IMG/VR virus record: IMGVR_UViG_2681813273_000011
From: a virus
Taxonomy: Duplodnaviria; Heunggongvirae; Uroviricota; Caudoviricetes
Direction: 5' to 3' (one strand)
Length of the DNA: 8,659 nt
Under the pieces are notes generated by a model, which saw only the letters and a program-made list of their open reading frames with translations, was not told the DNA's origin and made no database searches. Shown piece after piece: positions 620-8,659 of the stretch. Made by a program: the position numbers and the translations under genes. Position 1 is the first letter of the stretch, and every line of letters begins with the position of its first letter.

Positions 620-1177
620 ATGAATACAGCTATAACTTTTTCTAACGAGTCACCAAAAGTCTTTTTCAAAGATGGTCGCCTGGTTACCACCTCTCAAGCT
701 GTTGCCGACTACTTCGATAAACAACATAAACACGTTTTAGCTAAGATTGACACACTCGACTGCTCTCCCGAATTTACATCAGCCAACTTTTCGGCCGATG
801 TTCAGACTGTCGAAATTGGCAACGGCGCAGAACGTGAATCACGATGCTACCTGATCACAAAAGACGGCTTCATGTTCCTCGTAATGGGATTTACTGGCAA
901 AAAAGCAGCCAGACTAAAAGAAGCTTACATTGAAAAATTTAACGCAATGGAAGAAGAACTCCACAAACGTCCTCCTGCAGCACAAAACTCCCCCGCCCCA
1001 AATAATGGATGCGCATTACTGATCCACTTCGATAAACACGGTCAGGTCGAGTTCACAGAAAAAGTCCCCGCCGATGCGATGGTATGCACTCTGGAACGGT
1101 TTAAATTTTATCTGGAGCAACATGGGTGGATCGTTGCCCGTAAAGAACAATTGGTGGAAAGGTTGATGCGGTTTTAA
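620..1177 (+). CDS. Phage regulatory protein, Rha family (antirepressor-like)
   Basis: ORF track frame 605..1177. I place the start at ATG 620 because GGAG sits 9 nt upstream, giving MNTAITFSNESPKVFFKDGRLVTTSQAVADYFDKQHKHVLAKIDTL. The N-terminal region resembles the Rha family as I recall it. Stop TAA at 1175-1177. Confidence 0.75.
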   Translation: MNTAITFSNESPKVFFKDGRLVTTSQAVADYFDKQHKHVLAKIDTLDCSPEFTSANFSADVQTVEIGNGAERESRCYLITKDGFMFLVMGFTGKKAARLKEAYIEKFNAMEEELHKRPPAAQNSPAPNNGCALLIHFDKHGQVEFTEKVPADAMVCTLERFKFYLEQHGWIVARKEQLVERLMRF

Positions 1178-1303
1178 TGAATGCAAAACCCCGGATGATC
1201 ACCGAGGTTAATTTTATCGAGCGTGATTGCCGCTAATCGCCATCGCTCTGATTGAGCGTAAATCATTCAGGTTATTCAGTTCTTCCTTCTGCTCTCGCTG
1301 ACG

Positions 1304-1478
1304 TCAATAAATCCCATCATTGCGATCAACCTCATCCTTAACCATTGATGCGAGCAGTTCTTCCAGTTTCTGCGCTGACAGCTTTACCTGGTGATCTTCA
1401 GCATCTTCCCGGGCTATTGTGGTTCGCGCAGTGGCTGATTTTGCTGACATCACCACAGGGGGCAGACGGACCATTGAA
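1304..1478 (-). CDS. Hypothetical small protein (about 57 aa), convergent with rha
   Basis: Minus-strand ORF (track 1304..1585). A plausible start is the ATG at 1478 with GGAGG about 10 nt upstream (MVRLPPVVMSAKSATARTTIAREDAEDHQVKLSAQKLEELLASMVKDEVDRNDGIY). No recognisable family. Confidence 0.25.
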
Positions 1479-1540
1479 CCATGGCCTCCGGAACAAATAA
1501 GGGCAAAAATAACAACCACTATCGAAAGCTCACAAACTAA

Positions 1541-1574
1541 CCGCAGCACGTTCCTGCATACGACGTGTCTGCGG
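1541..1574. repeat. Conserved hairpin element, copy a (imperfect); likely terminator downstream of the minus-strand tfa remnant
   Basis: ccgcagcacg - 13-nt loop - cgtgtctgcgg. Same family as the hairpins at 3968-4000, 5868-5900 and 4707-4739, with a conserved loop (ttcYtgcWtaMga). Confidence 0.5.
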
Positions 1575-1588
1575 CATAATCCCAATGA

Positions 1589-1822
1589 TTACTCCCTGAC
1601 AGGATTTGCAGGCCACTCAATATCAGGTGCAGTTGATGTATCAACACGATTCAACAATACCCGATATTTATTCCATGCCTCCAGCAACGATCTTTCTTCC
1701 TCCGTTGCGATTTCCAGATCTACAGCATCCTGCAGTGGCGCAATATACTCACTAAATTCCTGGATGTAGAACTGTGTGGTGACGGTCTTCCAGCCATTCG
1801 GCTCCTGCTGTATCGAAGCATA
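1589..1822 (-). pseudogene. tfa: Tail fibre assembly protein (Tfa) C-terminal remnant, no start codon
   Basis: Minus-strand frame reads ...[61 protein letters not shown]. This aligns with the C-terminus of the intact tfa' in this window (...[45 protein letters not shown]). An in-frame stop lies upstream (plus-strand cta at 1823-1825). Confidence 0.65.
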
Positions 1823-1885
1823 CTAGGCTATTTCAATATCGCTATGCTGCGGCAGCATTTAACCCCTTGTAATTCATCGCCATAA

Positions 1886-1914
1886 TTGATTTAATTCACA
1901 AATAAAACTATAAT
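1886..1914 (+). promoter_or_regulatory. sigma70-like promoter of methyltransferase cassette, copy 1
   Basis: TTGATT (1886-1891), 17-bp spacer, consensus TATAAT (1909-1914) directly abutting the ATG at 1915. Confidence 0.5.
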
Positions 1915-2366
1915 ATGGTGAAATTAATGAAAAAAAACACAGATGATGGGGCTAAAATTTACACACCACTTACCCTAAAGCTTTATGACTGGTGGGTTTT
2001 GGGAGTATCAAATCGGCTTGCATGGGGATGTCCTACAAAGGAACACCTTCTTCCACACTTTCTGGAACATTTAGGTAACAACCATCTGGATATTGGTGTT
2101 GGAACTGGGTTTTACCTTACTCACGTACCTGAGAGTAGTCTGATATCTTTAATGGATTTGAACGAAGCTAGCCTGAACGCGGCATCTACAAGGGCTGGGG
2201 AATCAAAAATTAAACATAAAATTAGCCATGATGTTTTTGAACCTTATCCCGCGGCGTTACATGGTCAATTTGATTCCATTTCCATGTTTTACCTTCTTCA
2301 CTGCCTGCCTGGAAATATATCTACAAAAAGCTGTGTAATACGCAATGCGGCGCAGGCCTTAACTGA
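1915..2366 (+). pseudogene. Class I SAM-dependent methyltransferase, copy 1, truncated after codon 150 by an IS110-family fragment
   Basis: Identical to copies 2 and 3 through 2366, then diverges. The remainder of track ORF 1915..2529 is read-through into antisense IS sequence. Confidence 0.8.
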
Positions 2367-2987
2367 ACCCCATGAACCAGAAGAAACGATTTCAGACGTT
2401 GCCTTGCATGCCGTAAATCATCGCGGGCAGATGCCCATGCCCGGGCCAAATCCCGGAATGCCTCATCTTCAATGCCGGGTACGTAGACAGCAGAAAGATC
2501 TCCTGCACGCAGTGAACGCACAAGTCTGATGGCATCACGGCGATCGGTTTTAACCCGCTCCCCCGGTTTTTTCGGGATAAGTGAGGGGGCGCAGACCATG
2601 CAGTCAAAACCGGATTTCACCAGCCGACGATAAAGTCCATAACCACAGGGCCCCGCTTCATAAACGATACTGACCTGCGATGACTTTGACCTGAGACGTT
2701 TACAAAGATTCTGAATATCAGTAGGTGATGTGCCAATTTTACCCATCAGTTCAACAGGTTCTGAATTGATAGCATAAGCGACAGTAATCGATTCTTTGTG
2801 AACATCTAACCCGACGTACAATGTGTTATTGTTGTTCATGCTGGCCTCCGTGGTGGAAATACCGGGGTGTAGCAACAGCTCACCCATGCGGCTCTGACAA
2901 CGATGTTAACCCGCGTTAAATATCCCACGTTGGCCAGCATCTGTCTCACGGAAAGTCATACTGCCTTACATTGTGTCTGGTTCTTCC
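2367..2987 (-). mobile_element. IS110-family insertion sequence fragment: 5' non-coding leader (2840-2987) plus N-terminal recombinase domain (2367-2839)
   Basis: Minus-strand ORF starting MNNNNTLYVGLDVHKESITVAYA... with KTDRRDA motif is typical of the IS110-family DEDD transposase N-terminal domain. ATG at 2839 with GGAGG 5 nt upstream. About 157 codons remain before the junction with the methyltransferase at 2366/2367. The right boundary at 2987/2988 is inferred from where homology to the other tfa remnants resumes. Confidence 0.75.
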
Positions 2988-3199
2988 GGCCACTCAATAT
3001 CAGGTGCAGTTGATGTATCAACACGGTTCAGCAACACCCGATACTTCTTCCAGGCTTCCAGCAACGAGTTTTCTTCCTCCGTTGCGATCTCCAGATCTAC
3101 AGCATCCTGAAGTGGCGCAATATGCTCACTGAATTCCTGGATGTAGAACTGTGTGGTGACGGTCTTCCAGCCATTCGGCTCCTGCTGTATCGAAGCATA
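2988..3199 (-). pseudogene. tfa: Tfa C-terminal remnant, copy b; its 3' end is replaced by the IS110-family leader
   Basis: Minus frame ...[50 protein letters not shown], then reads into IS sequence. Differs from copy a at 13 positions across roughly 150 bp (1611-1760), then is identical towards the methyltransferase. Confidence 0.65.
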
Positions 3200-3262
3200 C
3201 TAGGCTATTTCAATATCGCTATGCTGCGGCAGCATTTAACCCCTTGTAATTCATCGCCATAA

Positions 3263-3291
3263 TTGATTTAATTCACAAATAAAACTATAAT
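3263..3291 (+). promoter_or_regulatory. sigma70-like promoter of methyltransferase cassette, copy 2
   Basis: TTGATT, 17-bp spacer, TATAAT (3286-3291), identical to copy 1. Confidence 0.5.
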
Positions 3292-3960
3292 ATGGTGAAA
3301 TTAATGAAAAAAAACACAGATGATGGGGCTAAAATTTACACACCACTTACCCTAAAGCTTTATGACTGGTGGGTTTTGGGAGTATCAAATCGGCTTGCAT
3401 GGGGATGTCCTACAAAGGAACACCTTCTTCCACACTTTCTGGAACATTTAGGTAACAACCATCTGGATATTGGTGTTGGAACTGGGTTTTACCTTACTCA
3501 CGTACCTGAGAGTAGTCTGATATCTTTAATGGATTTGAACGAAGCTAGCCTGAACGCGGCATCTACAAGGGCTGGGGAATCAAAAATTAAACATAAAATT
3601 AGCCATGATGTTTTTGAACCTTATCCCGCGGCGTTACATGGTCAATTTGATTCCATTTCCATGTTTTACCTTCTTCACTGCCTGCCTGGAAATATATCTA
3701 CAAAAAGCTGTGTAATACGCAATGCGGCGCAGGCCTTAACTGATGATGGAACTCTATACGGAGCCACAATTCTTGGCGATGGAGTTGTGCACAATAGCTT
3801 CGGTCAAAAACTGATGCGCATTTACAATCAGAAAGGCATCTTTTCAAACACAAAAGATTCCGAAGAAGGCTTAACACATATACTCTCAGAGCATTTCGAG
3901 AATGTTAAAACCAAGGTTCAAGGTACTGTAGTAATGTTTTCCGCTTCAGGGAAAAAATAG
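3292..3960 (+). CDS. Class I SAM-dependent methyltransferase (222 aa), substrate unknown
   Basis: ORF track 3292..3960. Contains a Rossmann-fold motif I (LDIGVGTGF), an acidic residue in ISLMDLNE, motif II-like FDSISMFYLLHCLP and motif III-like LTDDGTLYGATIL. I see no DPPY/NPPY or C5-cytosine motifs, so it is probably not a DNA methyltransferase. An alternative start is the ATG at 3304. Confidence 0.75.
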   Translation: MVKLMKKNTDDGAKIYTPLTLKLYDWWVLGVSNRLAWGCPTKEHLLPHFLEHLGNNHLDIGVGTGFYLTHVPESSLISLMDLNEASLNAASTRAGESKIKHKISHDVFEPYPAALHGQFDSISMFYLLHCLPGNISTKSCVIRNAAQALTDDGTLYGATILGDGVVHNSFGQKLMRIYNQKGIFSNTKDSEEGLTHILSEHFENVKTKVQGTVVMFSASGKK

Positions 3961-3967
3961 CATCCAA

Positions 3968-4000
3968 CCGCAGCACGTTCTTGCTTAAGACGTGCTGCGG
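3968..4000. terminator. Conserved hairpin between the convergent methyltransferase and tfa remnant; probable bidirectional terminator
   Basis: Perfect 10-bp inverted repeat ccgcagcacg / cgtgctgcgg around a 13-nt loop, 8 nt after the methyltransferase stop. The minus-strand side is followed by a T-rich tract. Confidence 0.5.
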
Positions 4001-4005
4001 CATAA

Positions 4006-4095
4006 TCCCAATGATTACTCCCTGACAGGGTTCGTAGGCCACTCAATATCAGGTGCAGTTGATGTATCAACACGGTTCAGCAACACCCGATACTT
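4006..4095 (-). pseudogene. tfa: Tfa extreme C-terminal remnant (about 28 codons), fused to the pin pseudogene
   Basis: Minus frame ...[27 protein letters not shown] with stop (plus-strand tta) at 4006-4008. Homology to copy b ends near 4095. Confidence 0.6.
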
Positions 4096-4341
4096 TTTCT
4101 AGGCTTCCACCACCAGCACGACAAGATGCCGCATACAGTGCCCCAGTCAGTCCAGTTTTCAGACAACCAGTGCGTCACCTTTTTGAAGGCGCTTTAAAGC
4201 ACGTTTTAATCCAGGTCGGCCTGTCCTTGTTCCGCTTAATTTATCTTCAAATATTTGTTCATATCCTGCACAAACAAGAGCGTTTCGTTGCAGGTCTGTA
4301 TTCTGGTCATTTGTTGATACCCTTACATAGCCAATCAGCAC
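4096..4341 (-). pseudogene. pin: Serine DNA invertase (Pin/Gin/Hin family) N-terminal pseudogene
   Basis: GTG start at 4341 with GGGAG upstream. Reads (M)LIGYVRVSTNDQNTDLQRNALVCAGYEQIFEDKLSGTRTGRPGLKRALKRLQKGDALVV*, where the stop replaces the Trp of the conserved VVWKLDRLGRS (tgg to tga). A second in-frame tga follows, and homology ends after about 82 codons. Confidence 0.8.
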
Positions 4342-4395
4342 GCTGAATCTCCCGTCCAAAAGCACAAATCATGCCATGCAGGCCAGAAACCGCCA

Positions 4396-4406
4396 TTATC
4401 TAAAAC
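4396..4406. other. Isolated pix/gix left half-site at the repeat-unit boundary
   Basis: ttatctaaaac is identical to the left half of the full site at 6296-6321. Identity with the downstream copy ends at 4406/4407, one base before the 2-bp core. Confidence 0.55.
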
Positions 4407-4706
4407 AAGATAAAAAGAGACCGAACACGATTCCTGTTTTCGTCAACAAACAATAAAACCCTTTAAAATTAATGCGTTAAATAAATTTACGTTCATCTTT
4501 TAATCCCTGACACGTACCATTGCATATTAATACATTCAACCAGTTACCATTTTTTTCGAGTTTTTTAGAGAAATTTTCGGGAATATTTCAGGTCAATCCA
4601 TGCAGACGCAAGCAATTCCTGTATTGAATAATTCCGTAGCAATTATGTAAAATCATCTCCGGCTGATTTTCATTCAAACTCGCGCTATCGAACATCCATC
4701 AGCCAG

Positions 4707-4739
4707 CCGTGGCACGTTCTTGCATACGACGTGCTACGG
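4707..4739. repeat. Stand-alone copy of the conserved hairpin element in AT-rich DNA
   Basis: ccgtggcacg - ttcttgcatacga - cgtgctacgg: a 10-bp stem with one G-T pair and the same loop family as the tfa-associated hairpins. Followed by a T-rich tract. Confidence 0.45.
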
Positions 4740-4863
4740 TTTCCTTTACGATTTGGGGTTGCGACTTTACCTCTATTGATAATGCATTCCGGCAGAACGT
4801 TCAAATATGAAGTACGATGTTTAACTAACCGAAAAACAAGAACAATACGGTGCAAGCAAGCTA

Positions 4864-4986
4864 TGAGGTAGCCTGAGTTTAACGGACACTCCTTCCTGAA
4901 ATAGAATGGCATCAGAAGGAGCTAATAATGAGCAGAAAAACCCAACGTTACTCTAAAGAGTTCAAAGCCGAAGCTGTCAGAACGGT
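4864..4986 (+). mobile_element. IS3-family (IS600-like) left end, truncated after 123 bp
   Basis: Starts TGAGGTAGCCTGAGTTTAACGGACACTCC..., identical to 8613-8659. An orfA start (ATG 4928, MSRKTQRYSKEFKAEAVRTV) matches my recollection of IS600 OrfA. The sequence switches abruptly at 4986/4987 to the tfa-remnant repeat. Confidence 0.7.
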
Positions 4987-5099
4987 TCATCCAGATCTAC
5001 AGCATCCTGAAGTGGCGCAATATGCTCACTGAATTCCTGGATGTAGAACTGTGTGGTGACGGTCTTCCAGCCATTCGGCTCCTGCTGTATCGAAGCATA
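4987..5099 (-). pseudogene. tfa: Tfa C-terminal remnant, third copy, 3'-truncated at the IS600-like junction
   Basis: Identical to 3087-3199 of copy b apart from the SNP at 5100 noted under the 1900-bp repeat finding. It begins at ccagatctacag directly after the IS fragment. Confidence 0.55.
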
Positions 5100-5162
5100 C
5101 CAGGCTATTTCAATATCGCTATGCTGCGGCAGCATTTAACCCCTTGTAATTCATCGCCATAA

Positions 5163-5191
5163 TTGATTTAATTCACAAATAAAACTATAAT
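5163..5191 (+). promoter_or_regulatory. sigma70-like promoter of methyltransferase cassette, copy 3
   Basis: Identical TTGATT - 17 bp - TATAAT arrangement. Confidence 0.5.
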
Positions 5192-5860
5192 ATGGTGAAA
5201 TTAATGAAAAAAAACACAGATGATGGGGCTAAAATTTACACACCACTTACCCTAAAGCTTTATGACTGGTGGGTTTTGGGAGTATCAAATCGGCTTGCAT
5301 GGGGATGTCCTACAAAGGAACACCTTCTTCCACACTTTCTGGAACATTTAGGTAACAACCATCTGGATATTGGTGTTGGAACTGGGTTTTACCTTACTCA
5401 CGTACCTGAGAGTAGTCTGATATCTTTAATGGATTTGAACGAAGCTAGCCTGAACGCGGCATCTACAAGGGCTGGGGAATCAAAAATTAAACATAAAATT
5501 AGCCATGATGTTTTTGAACCTTATCCCGCGGCGTTACATGGTCAATTTGATTCCATTTCCATGTTTTACCTTCTTCACTGCCTGCCTGGAAATATATCTA
5601 CAAAAAGCTGTGTAATACGCAATGCGGCGCAGGCCTTAACTGATGATGGAACTCTATACGGAGCCACAATTCTTGGCGATGGAGTTGTGCACAATAGCTT
5701 CGGTCAAAAACTGATGCGCATTTACAATCAGAAAGGCATCTTTTCAAACACAAAAGATTCCGAAGAAGGCTTAACACATATACTCTCAGAGCATTTCGAG
5801 AATGTTAAAACCAGGGTTCAAGGTACTGTAGTAATGTTTTCCGCTTCAGGGAAAAAATAG
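5192..5860 (+). CDS. Class I SAM-dependent methyltransferase (222 aa), copy 3
   Basis: ORF track 5192..5860. Differs from copy 2 by one residue (K to R near the C-terminus). Confidence 0.75.
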   Translation: MVKLMKKNTDDGAKIYTPLTLKLYDWWVLGVSNRLAWGCPTKEHLLPHFLEHLGNNHLDIGVGTGFYLTHVPESSLISLMDLNEASLNAASTRAGESKIKHKISHDVFEPYPAALHGQFDSISMFYLLHCLPGNISTKSCVIRNAAQALTDDGTLYGATILGDGVVHNSFGQKLMRIYNQKGIFSNTKDSEEGLTHILSEHFENVKTRVQGTVVMFSASGKK

Positions 5861-5867
5861 CATCCAA

Positions 5868-5900
5868 CCGCAGCACGTTCTTGCTTAAGACGTGCTGCGG
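5868..5900. terminator. Conserved hairpin, probable bidirectional terminator (copy of 3968-4000)
   Basis: Identical 10-bp inverted repeat with 13-nt loop. Confidence 0.5.
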
Positions 5901-5905
5901 CATAA

Positions 5906-5995
5906 TCCCAATGATTACTCCCTGACAGGGTTCGTAGGCCACTCAATATCAGGTGCAGTTGATGTATCAACACGGTTCAGCAACACCCGATACTT
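5906..5995 (-). pseudogene. tfa: Tfa extreme C-terminal remnant (copy of 4006-4095)
   Basis: Identical to 4006-4095. Confidence 0.6.
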
Positions 5996-6241
5996 TTTCT
6001 AGGCTTCCACCACCAGCACGACAAGATGCCGCATACAGTGCCCCAGTCAGTCCAGTTTTCAGACAACCAGTGCGTCACCTTTTTGAAGGCGCTTTAAAGC
6101 ACGTTTTAATCCAGGTCGGCCTGTCCTTGTTCCGCTTAATTTATCTTCAAATATTTGTTCATATCCTGCACAAACAAGAGCGTTTCGTTGCAGGTCTGTA
6201 TTCTGGTCATTTGTTGATACCCTTACATAGCCAATCAGCAC
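5996..6241 (-). pseudogene. pin: Serine DNA invertase (Pin/Gin/Hin family) N-terminal pseudogene, adjacent to the pix site
   Basis: Identical to 4096-4341, with the same two premature stops. The GTG start at 6241 lies 55 bp from the pix site, as expected for a gin/pin gene next to its crossover site. Confidence 0.8.
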
Positions 6242-6295
6242 GCTGAATCTCCCGTCCAAAAGCACAAATCATGCCATGCAGGCCAGAAACCGCCA

Positions 6296-6321
6296 TTATC
6301 TAAAACCTCGGTTTACGAGAA
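6296..6321. other. pix/gix-type 26-bp crossover site (12-bp half-site, 2-bp core, 12-bp half-site)
   Basis: ttatctaaaacc-tc-ggtttacgagaa. Differs at about 3 of 26 positions from the Mu gix sequence TTATCCAAAACCTCGGTTTACAGGAA as I recall it. Lies between pin and the tail-fibre segment, and the fibre reading frame (NLGLRE...) opens inside it. Confidence 0.75.
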
Positions 6322-7080
6322 CTCGGCACAAGCGGGGAGAAAATACCGTTACTCAGTACAGCGAATACCTGGACTAATCGACAAACATTCAGCGGTGGCC
6401 TTTCTGGTGAACTATCCGGCAATGCTTCTACAGCTGCAAAATTAAAAACTGCCAGGAAAATAAGCAATGTGGCTTTTGATGGTTCCTCCGATATCACATT
6501 AAAAGCAAGTCATGTTGGTGCGTTTGCCTTAGGGAAAACAGGAAGCACCGTTGCGAATGATAAAGCAGTTGGATGGAACTGGAGTAGCGGAGCCTATAAC
6601 GCAACTATTAGTGGTGCATCAACGTTAATTATTCATTTTTATATGGGAGAAGGAAGTTGTCCTGCAGCTCAGTTTCGGATTAATTATAAAAATGGCGGTA
6701 TTTTTTATCGTTCAGCCCGTGATGGTTATGGTTTTGAAGCCGACTGGTCCGAATTTTACACCACCAGAAAACCTTCAGCAGGAGATGTTGGTGCACTGCC
6801 GTTATCTGGTGGTCAACTGAATGGTGCACTGGGTATCGGAACATCCAGTGCTCTTGGCGGTAATTCGATTGTATTGGGTGATAATGACACGGGCTTTAAA
6901 CAAAAAGGCGATGGTAATCTGGATGTTTATGCTAATAACGTCCATGTTATGCGCTTTGTCTCCGGAAGCATTCAAAGTAATAAAACCATAAATATTACGG
7001 GACGTGTTAATCCCTCGGATTACGGTAACTTTGATTCCCGCTATGTGAGAGATGTCAGACTTGGCACACGAGTTGTTTAG
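6304..7080 (+). CDS. Tail fibre variable C-terminal segment (Sv-like), silent orientation, no start codon; ends at an in-frame TAG
   Basis: Open frame from inside the pix site: NLGLRELGTSGEKIPLLSTANTWTNRQTFSGG... to ...RYVRDVRLGTRVV*. ORF track 6469..7080 is the same frame. Homology to the other fibre C-terminus continues for 49 codons past the TAG, to a TAA at 7228-7230. Confidence 0.7.
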   Translation, partial: NLGLRELGTSGEKIPLLSTANTWTNRQTFSGGLSGELSGNASTAAKLKTARKISNVAFDGSSDITLKASHVGAFALGKTGSTVANDKAVGWNWSSGAYNATISGASTLIIHFYMGEGSCPAAQFRINYKNGGIFYRSARDGYGFEADWSEFYTTRKPSAGDVGALPLSGGQLNGALGIGTSSALGGNSIVLGDNDTGFKQKGDGNLDVYANNVHVMRFVSGSIQSNKTINITGRVNPSDYGNFDSRYVRDVRLGTRVV

Positions 7081-7232
7081 ACCATGAAGAAAGGCGTGAT
7101 GTATGAAAAATCAGGCCATGTAATCACGGGGCTTGGTATTATCGGTGAAGTCGATGGTGATGATCCGGCAGTATTCAGACCAATACAAAAGTTAATTAAC
7201 GGAACATGGTATAACGTATCGCAGGTATAATC

Positions 7233-7766
7233 ATGCAGCATTTAAAAAACATTGTCGCAGGTAATCCAAAAACCGTTGAACAATACCAGCTAACAAAGAA
7301 TTTTGATGTTATCTGGTTATGGTCCGAAGATGGAAAAAATTGGCATGAGGAATTAAAAAACTTTCAGGAGGATACAATAAAACTGGCTTACACAGTTGAG
7401 GGAATAATTATTGCTATAGACAAGGATGTATCAGCAATTAATCCAGAAGGTTTAAGTGTCGTTGAGTTGCCTGATATTACAGCAAATCGCCGGGCTGATA
7501 TTTCGGGCAACTGGATGTTCAAAGATGGTGCGGTGATAAAGCGAACTTATACCGAGGAAGAGCAAAGGCAACAAGCGGAAAATGAAAAGCAGAGCCTGCT
7601 GCAGCTCGTCAGGGATAAAACCCAGCTGTGGGACTCTCAGCTACAGCTGGGCATCATTTCCGATGAGAATAAACAAAAATTAACCGAGTGGATGCTCTAT
7701 GCGCAGAAGGTTGAATCCACAGACACCTCCAGCCTGCCAGTAACGTTTCCCGAACAACCAGAATGA
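7233..7766 (+). CDS. tfa: Tail fibre assembly protein (Tfa/U-like chaperone)
   Basis: ORF track 7233..7766, [22 protein letters not shown]... N-terminus is similar to the convergent tfa' and the C-terminus is divergent. The ATG lies 2 nt after the extended fibre stop. Confidence 0.85.
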
Positions 7767-7769
7767 GAG

Positions 7770-7799
7770 AAGGCCCGCTATCGGGCCTTAATTTTTATT
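7770..7799. terminator. Bidirectional rho-independent terminator between the convergent tfa genes
   Basis: 8-bp GC-rich stem aaggcccg / cgggcctt with 4-nt loop (7770-7789), followed by a T-rich tract (aatttttatt). Confidence 0.65.
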
Positions 7800-8322
7800 C
7801 AGGCTTTTGTGGCCATTCAGGATTTGCCGTATCCACACGGCTGACCAGAACACTGTAGCGTTCCCATGCTTCCAGTCGTGTGCGTTCCTCGTCTGTTGCC
7901 ATATTCAGCCTGACAGCTCGTTCCAGCGGCTGGATGACTGATTCAGCTTCGGAAAGCAATGCGGCCTTTTGTGATTCGGCCTGTTGTTGCAGTTCCTGTT
8001 CTGTATATTCCCTCTTTACTACTTTACCATCCAGAAACATCCATTTTCCGTTATTGTCTGCGTGACGATTTGCCGTAATATCAGGAACTTCAACTATGCT
8101 TAGCCCTTCAGGATTAATAGTTGAAACGTCTTTACTGACAGCAACGATGATGTTGTTCTCATCGTAAGCAATTTTTATGGTGTCTGGCTGAAAATTCTTT
8201 TGTTCCTCATACCAGTTTTTGCCATCTTCGCAAAAGAGCCATACCACGCCCGCTTTTTTAGTTAGCTGGTATTGTTCCGGTGTTTTCGGATTCCCGGCCT
8301 TAATATTTTTCAGGTGCATCAT
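7795..8322 (-). CDS. tfa: Tail fibre assembly protein (Tfa'), alternative copy
   Basis: ORF track 7795..8358. Start chosen at ATG 8322 ([22 protein letters not shown]...) by alignment with the plus-strand tfa and its position just after the upstream fibre stop. Confidence 0.85.
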
Positions 8323-8323
8323 C

Positions 8324-8611
8324 TTAAACACTCCCCACGTTGTACCATATTCCCCCAATCAATTTCTGAATTGGCCTTCTGGCAACAGTGTCGACAATAT
8401 CATCCGCATTGCTGTTAATTGCGGCTGTTAAAACATAACCTGACGCATCGCCAAAGCCGTAGTCGCGCCATACGTTTTTATATTCAATGCTGCCAAGACG
8501 AATATCCCGAACGACATGATTATGCAGCCATGTGCTTAACCAGTTGTTTTCCCACACTGAACCATAAATATCGCCACTAGACGCAACTTGCGCACCACTT
8601 CCCAGCGCAAA
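8324..8611 (-). CDS. Tail fibre variable C-terminal segment (S'v-like); 5' portion cut off by an IS600-like insertion
   Basis: Minus frame ...[95 protein letters not shown]. The C-terminus parallels the plus-strand fibre segment (VRDVRLG / [12 protein letters not shown]). The first 9 codons of track ORF 8324..8638 are IS-derived. Confidence 0.75.
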
Positions 8612-8612
8612 T

Positions 8613-8659
8613 TGAGGTAGCCTGAGTTTAACGGACACTCCTTCCTGAAATAGAATGGC
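8613..8659 (+). mobile_element. IS3-family (IS600-like) left end; element continues off the right edge of the window
   Basis: Identical to the first 47 bp of the fragment at 4864. Confidence 0.7.

Follow-up and report, generated by a model that had tools for sequence, protein, structure and literature searches.

The window, the whole 8,659-nucleotide stretch of viral DNA analysed here, carries a tail fibre reading frame that is interrupted by an amber codon shortly before its expected end. This raises the question whether the stop is a nonsense mutation in a decaying gene, a codon that is read through, the natural end of the fibre, or an error in the sequence. A first-pass annotation, made from the letters of the window alone, had proposed a recent nonsense mutation, or else a suppressor-dependent amber, in the receptor-binding tip of a silent fibre segment. 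The source lineage of the window is Shigella sonnei, and the comparisons described below make it very probable that the TAG is a lineage-specific nonsense mutation in the fibre gene of a Pin/Gin-type cassette, residing in a defective lambdoid S. sonnei prophage and representing ordinary decay.

Reading frame and ancestral codon of the amber

The codon at positions 7078-7080 on the plus strand reads TAG and is in frame with a reading frame that is open from 6304 on. Downstream of it, the frame continues for 49 sense codons (7081-7227) up to a TAA at 7228-7230, and only 2 nt (TC) separate this TAA from the ATG (7233) of the tail fibre assembly gene tfa, an arrangement that is exactly as first described. 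The part before the stop (Sv, 6304-7077) is a variable fibre segment that matches Pfam gp37_C and is present in the window without an N-terminal constant part; in databases it appears as a 203-aa 'bacteriophage tail protein' with its start placed at GTG 6469. The part beyond the stop (7081-7230), consisting of the orphaned last 49 codons of the fibre tip and the TAA, is annotated as a 48-aa ORF starting at ATG 7084. A run of 49 codons without a stop is not unusual by chance alone (about 0.1 by our own estimate) and carries little weight by itself, so that homology is what decides. In this respect, the 49-residue stretch and the C-terminal end of the minus-strand fibre remnant (8324-8638) can be aligned with 19/41 identities and E = 4e-09, which confirms the similarity between the two fibre ends that had been noted before.

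The closest relatives of the segment carry a sense codon at this position that is a single step away from TAG. A Shigella dysenteriae contig (L014, QXIG01000439.1) is identical to window positions 6973-7281 at 308 of 309 nt, and its sole mismatch is a C instead of the T at 7078. Escherichia coli NCTC86 contains the same segment at 94% nucleotide identity, with CAG at the position of the TAG, and differs from the window at no position between 7079 and the start of tfa. The fibre CDS of NCTC86 encodes 442 aa, reads RLGTRVVQTMKKGVMY around the site, and runs uninterrupted to its end 2 nt before tfa.

More distant homologues were compared by aligning a 146-aa tip query with the 120 database matches listed and reading the residue at the column of the TAG. 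Among these listed matches, Gln occupies the column in 55 aligned homologues, the remainder having another residue or a gap. Listed tips that contain the RLGTRVV motif have Gln in all cases but one, the exception being P0013 with Lys, and listed tips of other types have different residues. None of the 120 matches listed ends at the position of the TAG; all of them continue in one frame. Moreover, intact tips that are 92-95% identical are found in phages that have been isolated and propagated, including L-413C, pro147 and P2-like phages. Over the 79 residues of the tip on both sides of the TAG, the gpH protein of L-413C shows 95% identity (E = 2e-45) in an unbroken alignment, and the last 79 residues of the pro147 fibre are 92% identical; Gln is found at the position of the TAG in both, and in both a Caudo_TAP assembly gene follows directly.

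Because the nearest relatives, the phages and all but one of the listed RLGTRVV homologues carry Gln, these alignments show that the ancestral codon is CAG (Gln) and that the event was one C-to-T transition to TAG. The stop lies within a region that is continuous in the uninterrupted CDSs of NCTC86, L-413C and pro147, and the 49 codons behind it are fully homologous to intact fibres. The proposal of a nonsense mutation in the receptor-binding tip of the segment is hereby supported on each of its components: an ancestral CAG, no homologue ending at the site among the matches listed, and a homologous downstream stretch. An exact-pattern scan of a one-genome-per-species contig set, using a 34-nt context with any codon allowed at 7078, returned no match; the allele is assumed to be absent from that set, which makes the scan uninformative either way.

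The inversion cassette and its lesions

From position 6296 to the end of the window, the gene order has the layout of an invertible host-range cassette of the Mu G, P1 C and e14 P type, in which a variable fibre C-terminus and a tfa gene occur twice, in opposite orientations. On the plus strand, the variable fibre part (6304-7230) is followed by the tfa for this tip (7233-7766), which encodes 177 aa, matches Pfam Caudo_TAP (E = 4.8e-34), and has its exact product on record as a Shigella tail fiber assembly protein. Facing this set on the minus strand is a second tfa, for the opposite tip (7795-8322; Caudo_TAP, E = 7.9e-37), which shares 55% identity with the first tfa and makes up inverted repeat I1. 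Next to it lies the S'v remnant (8324-8612), an ORF comprising the last ~96 codons of the alternative tip that is cut by an insertion sequence (IS) and of which the C-terminus aligns with the other tip. Loci free of this IS encode fibres of 280-918 aa at the S'v position.

The left crossover site of 26 bp (TTATCTAAAACC TC GGTTTACGAGAA; 6296-6321), which we take to match the Din-family consensus, is contained in the window, and the right site is located outside it, past the IS insertion. Related loci have the 26-bp site together with an inverted partner at a distance of about 2.9 kb, and both sites are present in loci L005, L011, L013 and L001. Two of these, L005 and L013, were found in opposite orientations: the segment is flipped, and the left half-sites are swapped about the central TC (TTATCTAAAACC vs TTATCGAATACC). 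Such a half-site exchange is the signature of precise site-specific inversion. The crossover sites in L005 and L013 are positioned at 2061-2090 and 4989-5010.

The adjacent pin-type serine invertase gene is truncated. The minus-strand remnant at 5954-6265 contains residues 1-99 of about 199, has an ORF of 68 aa, and matches the Pfam Resolvase N-terminal domain (E = 4.6e-15); a tblastn search with an intact 199-aa invertase homologue as query covered residues 1-99 only, and no functional serine invertase was found next to the cassette. The same truncated invertase is present in all ten S. sonnei-type loci that were compared and in E. coli NCTC86. Because orientation differs among loci while every copy has the truncated invertase, the activity was most likely supplied in trans. 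The invertases Gin, Cin, Pin and Hin cross-complement one another.

The description of the TAG-bearing segment as silent holds for part of the material. It is apt for the window, since the segment adjoins the dead invertase there, with its crossover site next to the truncated pin, and not the fibre constant part, the N-terminal fibre region being absent. It does not hold for S. sonnei ATCC 29930 (L013, among the ten loci), in which the segment is flipped to the expressed position and joined to the fibre constant part, creating an 875-aa ORF that stops at the TAG; the other tip of this strain has no IS insertion. The sequence CP026802.1 is that of ATCC 29930 (PMC9430107).

Besides the invertase, several other parts of the cassette are damaged. 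The end of an IS3-family element lies within the minus-strand fibre segment (8613-8659, plus strand) and is identical over its 47 nt to positions 4864-4910; it is presumably IS600, and in L006 and L007 the same element encodes HTH_Tnp_1 and rve transposase ORFs. In the lineage of the window (L004), lysis genes and not the fibre constant part are found past this IS. Furthermore, alignment with NCTC86 revealed the in-frame loss of one ACC (Thr) codon at 6760-6765 (EFYTTRKPS vs EFYTTTRKPS), which is common to all ten S. sonnei-type loci; three Thr residues are present at this motif in the L001-L003 homologues and in Mu S'. It is this combination of a truncated pin, an opposite fibre cut by an IS, a lost Thr codon and lysis genes past the IS that places the TAG in a context of decay.

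The tip with the preserved CAG in L014 survives as a 309-nt island with unrelated sequence on one side, and the same IS3-family end is inserted within its tfa at the equivalent of window position 7281 (contig region 1-415), which shows that the cassette has decayed independently in a second Shigella lineage.

The locus shares with the Din family (Mu G/gin, P1 C/cin, e14 P/pin) the two head-to-head sets of variable fibre C-terminus and tfa, the 26-bp crossover site inside the fibre reading frame and beside a serine invertase gene, and the occurrence of both orientations among strains with exact exchange of half-sites; its fibre parts are homologous in sequence to Mu S and S'. In contrast to the members of this family, the invertase in the window is a truncated pseudogene, the IS has cut off the fibre constant part along with the second crossover site, and one of the two tips carries an amber codon. 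With a dead invertase and one crossover site severed by the IS, the locus does not qualify as a functional Din member, and the cassette in the window is a fossil and not a working switch.

The tip resembles the gpH proteins of the P2-like phages L-413C and pro147, both in the sequence of its last 79 residues and in the Caudo_TAP gene directly after it. However, the phage genes are uninterrupted with Gln and are not part of an inversion cassette, whereas the copy in the window belongs to a lambdoid-type remnant, with Lom and phage_tail_N upstream in L013, and gpJ and Lom in L001. L-413C is a plague-diagnostic Yersinia phage and pro147 a coliphage, and the tip used in this comparison corresponds to window positions 6994-7230.

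Spread of the allele and consequences for the fibre tip

The 203-aa ORF that ends at the TAG is exactly UniProt Q3Z104_SHISS, a 'putative bacteriophage tail protein' of S. sonnei Ss046, and the 48-aa ORF is on record as 'putative tail fiber protein (GpH) [Shigella sonnei]'; each of the two split ORFs occurs on at least 1000 contigs. The genomic context was studied in a sample of ten chromosomal contigs of about 4.8-5.0 Mb each (complete or near-complete genomes), chosen by encoding the same Tfa protein. The TAG was present, within an otherwise identical 930-nt segment, in 10/10 of these S. sonnei-type genomes. The stop is reproducible in independent sequences, and the TAG is fixed in the S. 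sonnei-type genomes. The mutation arose after the S. dysenteriae and NCTC86 alleles had branched off, and in this sense the qualification 'recent' is justified, but it is old enough to be common to all ten genomes examined.

The 150 nt past the TAG are undecayed relative to NCTC86, which is expected for a young mutation and also fits continued constraint, but is no argument that the stretch has a function. A variant of 7084-7227 (P0156) with a D-to-E replacement (GDDP to GDEP) was encountered in two S. sonnei contigs, so that the stretch behind the stop has already begun to change further.

The part of the fibre that is lost by truncation could be delineated by comparison with phage Mu. Residues 71-165 of the fibre segment match Mu S' (8JU3; E = 9e-55), and the read-through tip matches Mu S in its complex with Tfa (5YVQ chain A, residues 424-502 of 504; E = 5e-16). 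Homology to the C-terminal domain of Mu S and a Caudo_TAP gene immediately downstream identify the tip as one of the Mu S / P2 gpH type. The chain in the Mu S crystal structure aligns continuously across the TAG site; as counted from the alignment, the TAG coincides with Mu S residue 452, and the 49 orphan codons align with about residues 453-502 of 504 (5YVQ). The lost part, matching Mu S 452-504, comprises a hypervariable stretch behind the conserved RLG motif as well as the RP(I/V)QK-INGTWYN end, which is conserved. TfaMu binds the distal fibre moiety and ensures its correct trimerisation, as summarised from structural work on the Mu fibre and Tfa (PMC9608196), and for the P2-like phage P88, swaps with pro147 showed that host range is determined by a hypervariable stretch of 31 aa (residues 716-746) close to the C-terminus (PMC5285337). 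Because the residues matching Mu S 452-504 are lost, and in view of this literature on Tfa binding and host range, loss of function is predicted: the truncated product would be unable to fold, trimerise, be matured by its Tfa or bind its receptor.

The proposed course of events can be outlined on this basis. The C-to-T change at 7078 turned the Gln codon CAG into TAG, and translation stops 49 codons early in the variable, receptor-binding part of the fibre. The hypervariable stretch and the RPIQK-INGTWYN C-terminal strand, which make up the Tfa-bound distal tip region in Mu S, are thereby removed from the product. The change would represent neutral decay in a prophage that is probably no longer making particles.

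Alternative readings of the stop and the surrounding modules

The second possibility put forward in the first-pass annotation, that the amber is suppressor-dependent or leaky, implies that the TAG is read by a suppressor tRNA or by near-cognate tRNA-Gln and that the full-length fibre is made, possibly as a regulated minor product. The 49 downstream codons are intact and identical to those of functional alleles, misreading by near-cognate tRNA-Gln would restore the ancestral Gln, and the segment occupies the expressed position in ATCC 29930. However, intact downstream sequence is expected anyway after a young mutation, and several other disabling lesions are present in the cassette and the prophage. 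The TAG is, moreover, restricted to one allele: among the matches listed no allele but the S. sonnei type carries it, and a sense codon takes its place in the nearest relatives and in diverged homologues. A search for tRNA genes in the window and in five related loci (L001, L004, L005, L011 and L013) detected none. The suppressor-dependent alternative found no support in these data, and we consider read-through of either kind very improbable.

A variant of this idea, which seems slightly less probable still, is that in some strains such as ATCC 29930 the amber tip is flipped to the expressed position by an invertase acting in trans, and that read-through by tRNA-Gln yields a little regulated full-length fibre; or else that truncation was selected to disarm a prophage- or tailocin-derived particle instead of having spread by drift. 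Since the TAG segment of ATCC 29930 is preceded by the 5' constant part of its fibre gene, some low level of read-through product might conceivably be made there.

It is extremely improbable that the fibre naturally ends at 7080 and that 7084-7230 represents a separate small gene. Gene callers do predict a 48-aa protein from an ATG at 7084, but no evident Shine-Dalgarno sequence precedes this ATG as judged by eye, no homologue among the matches listed ends at the site, and the Mu S structure chain is continuous across it. The homologue alignment, the match to the Mu S structure and the intact phage tips rule this reading out. A single-base sequencing or assembly error, although a one-base change is the smallest possible artefact, is equally implausible and is ruled out by the identity of the allele in ten independent assemblies and by the presence of each split ORF on at least 1000 contigs.

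Ordinary decay by a nonsense mutation agrees with what is common in Shigella, of which the genomes are rich in pseudogenes and in decay caused by IS elements. The locus follows the pattern of pseudogene formation and IS expansion in this group, in that a nonsense point mutation is fixed in a clonal pathogen and fragments of several IS elements lie around it, and nothing sets the TAG at 7078 apart from this pattern. Both ORF fragments are already part of public annotation (Q3Z104_SHISS and the 48-aa GpH ORF), and the pseudogenising mutation is of a known sort. As one more such point mutation in a degraded S. sonnei prophage, it matters little. With respect to annotation, the two ORFs should be merged as a single pseudogene. 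The CAG/TAG site and the orientation of the segment could serve as a lineage marker, and for the mining of receptor-binding domains from prophage fibres, the intact form of the tip is that of the L-413C / pro147 type.

Upstream of the cassette, a module consisting of Rha, a tfa fragment, a SAM-methyltransferase and a pin remnant (956-6306) is present in three copies in the window and as a single copy in ten related S. sonnei-type loci; the methyltransferase ORFs are found at 1915, 3292 and 5192. The copies are joined via partial IS pieces, namely a fragment of ISSso6 (IS110-family) at 2367-2987 and a 125-bp IS3-family end at 4864-4988. The ORFs created at the junctions, a 204-aa methyltransferase variant and a 75-aa ORF across an IS junction, had no record in the gene index, and the triplication could be either a real IS-mediated amplification or an assembly artefact.

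The second copy of the pin remnant (4396-4863) contains the pin-proximal half of the crossover site only (TTATCTAAAAC). The DNA fused to this half-site shares 99% identity with a part of E. coli that lacks annotation and is located beside pinE in some genomes, which suggests that the crossover site recombined long ago with an e14-like element. Finally, positions 1-43 of the window presumably correspond to the end of IS1 (CAATAAGTTGGAGTCATTACC), and a weak 20-nt repeat of this window-start sequence is found at 598-617.
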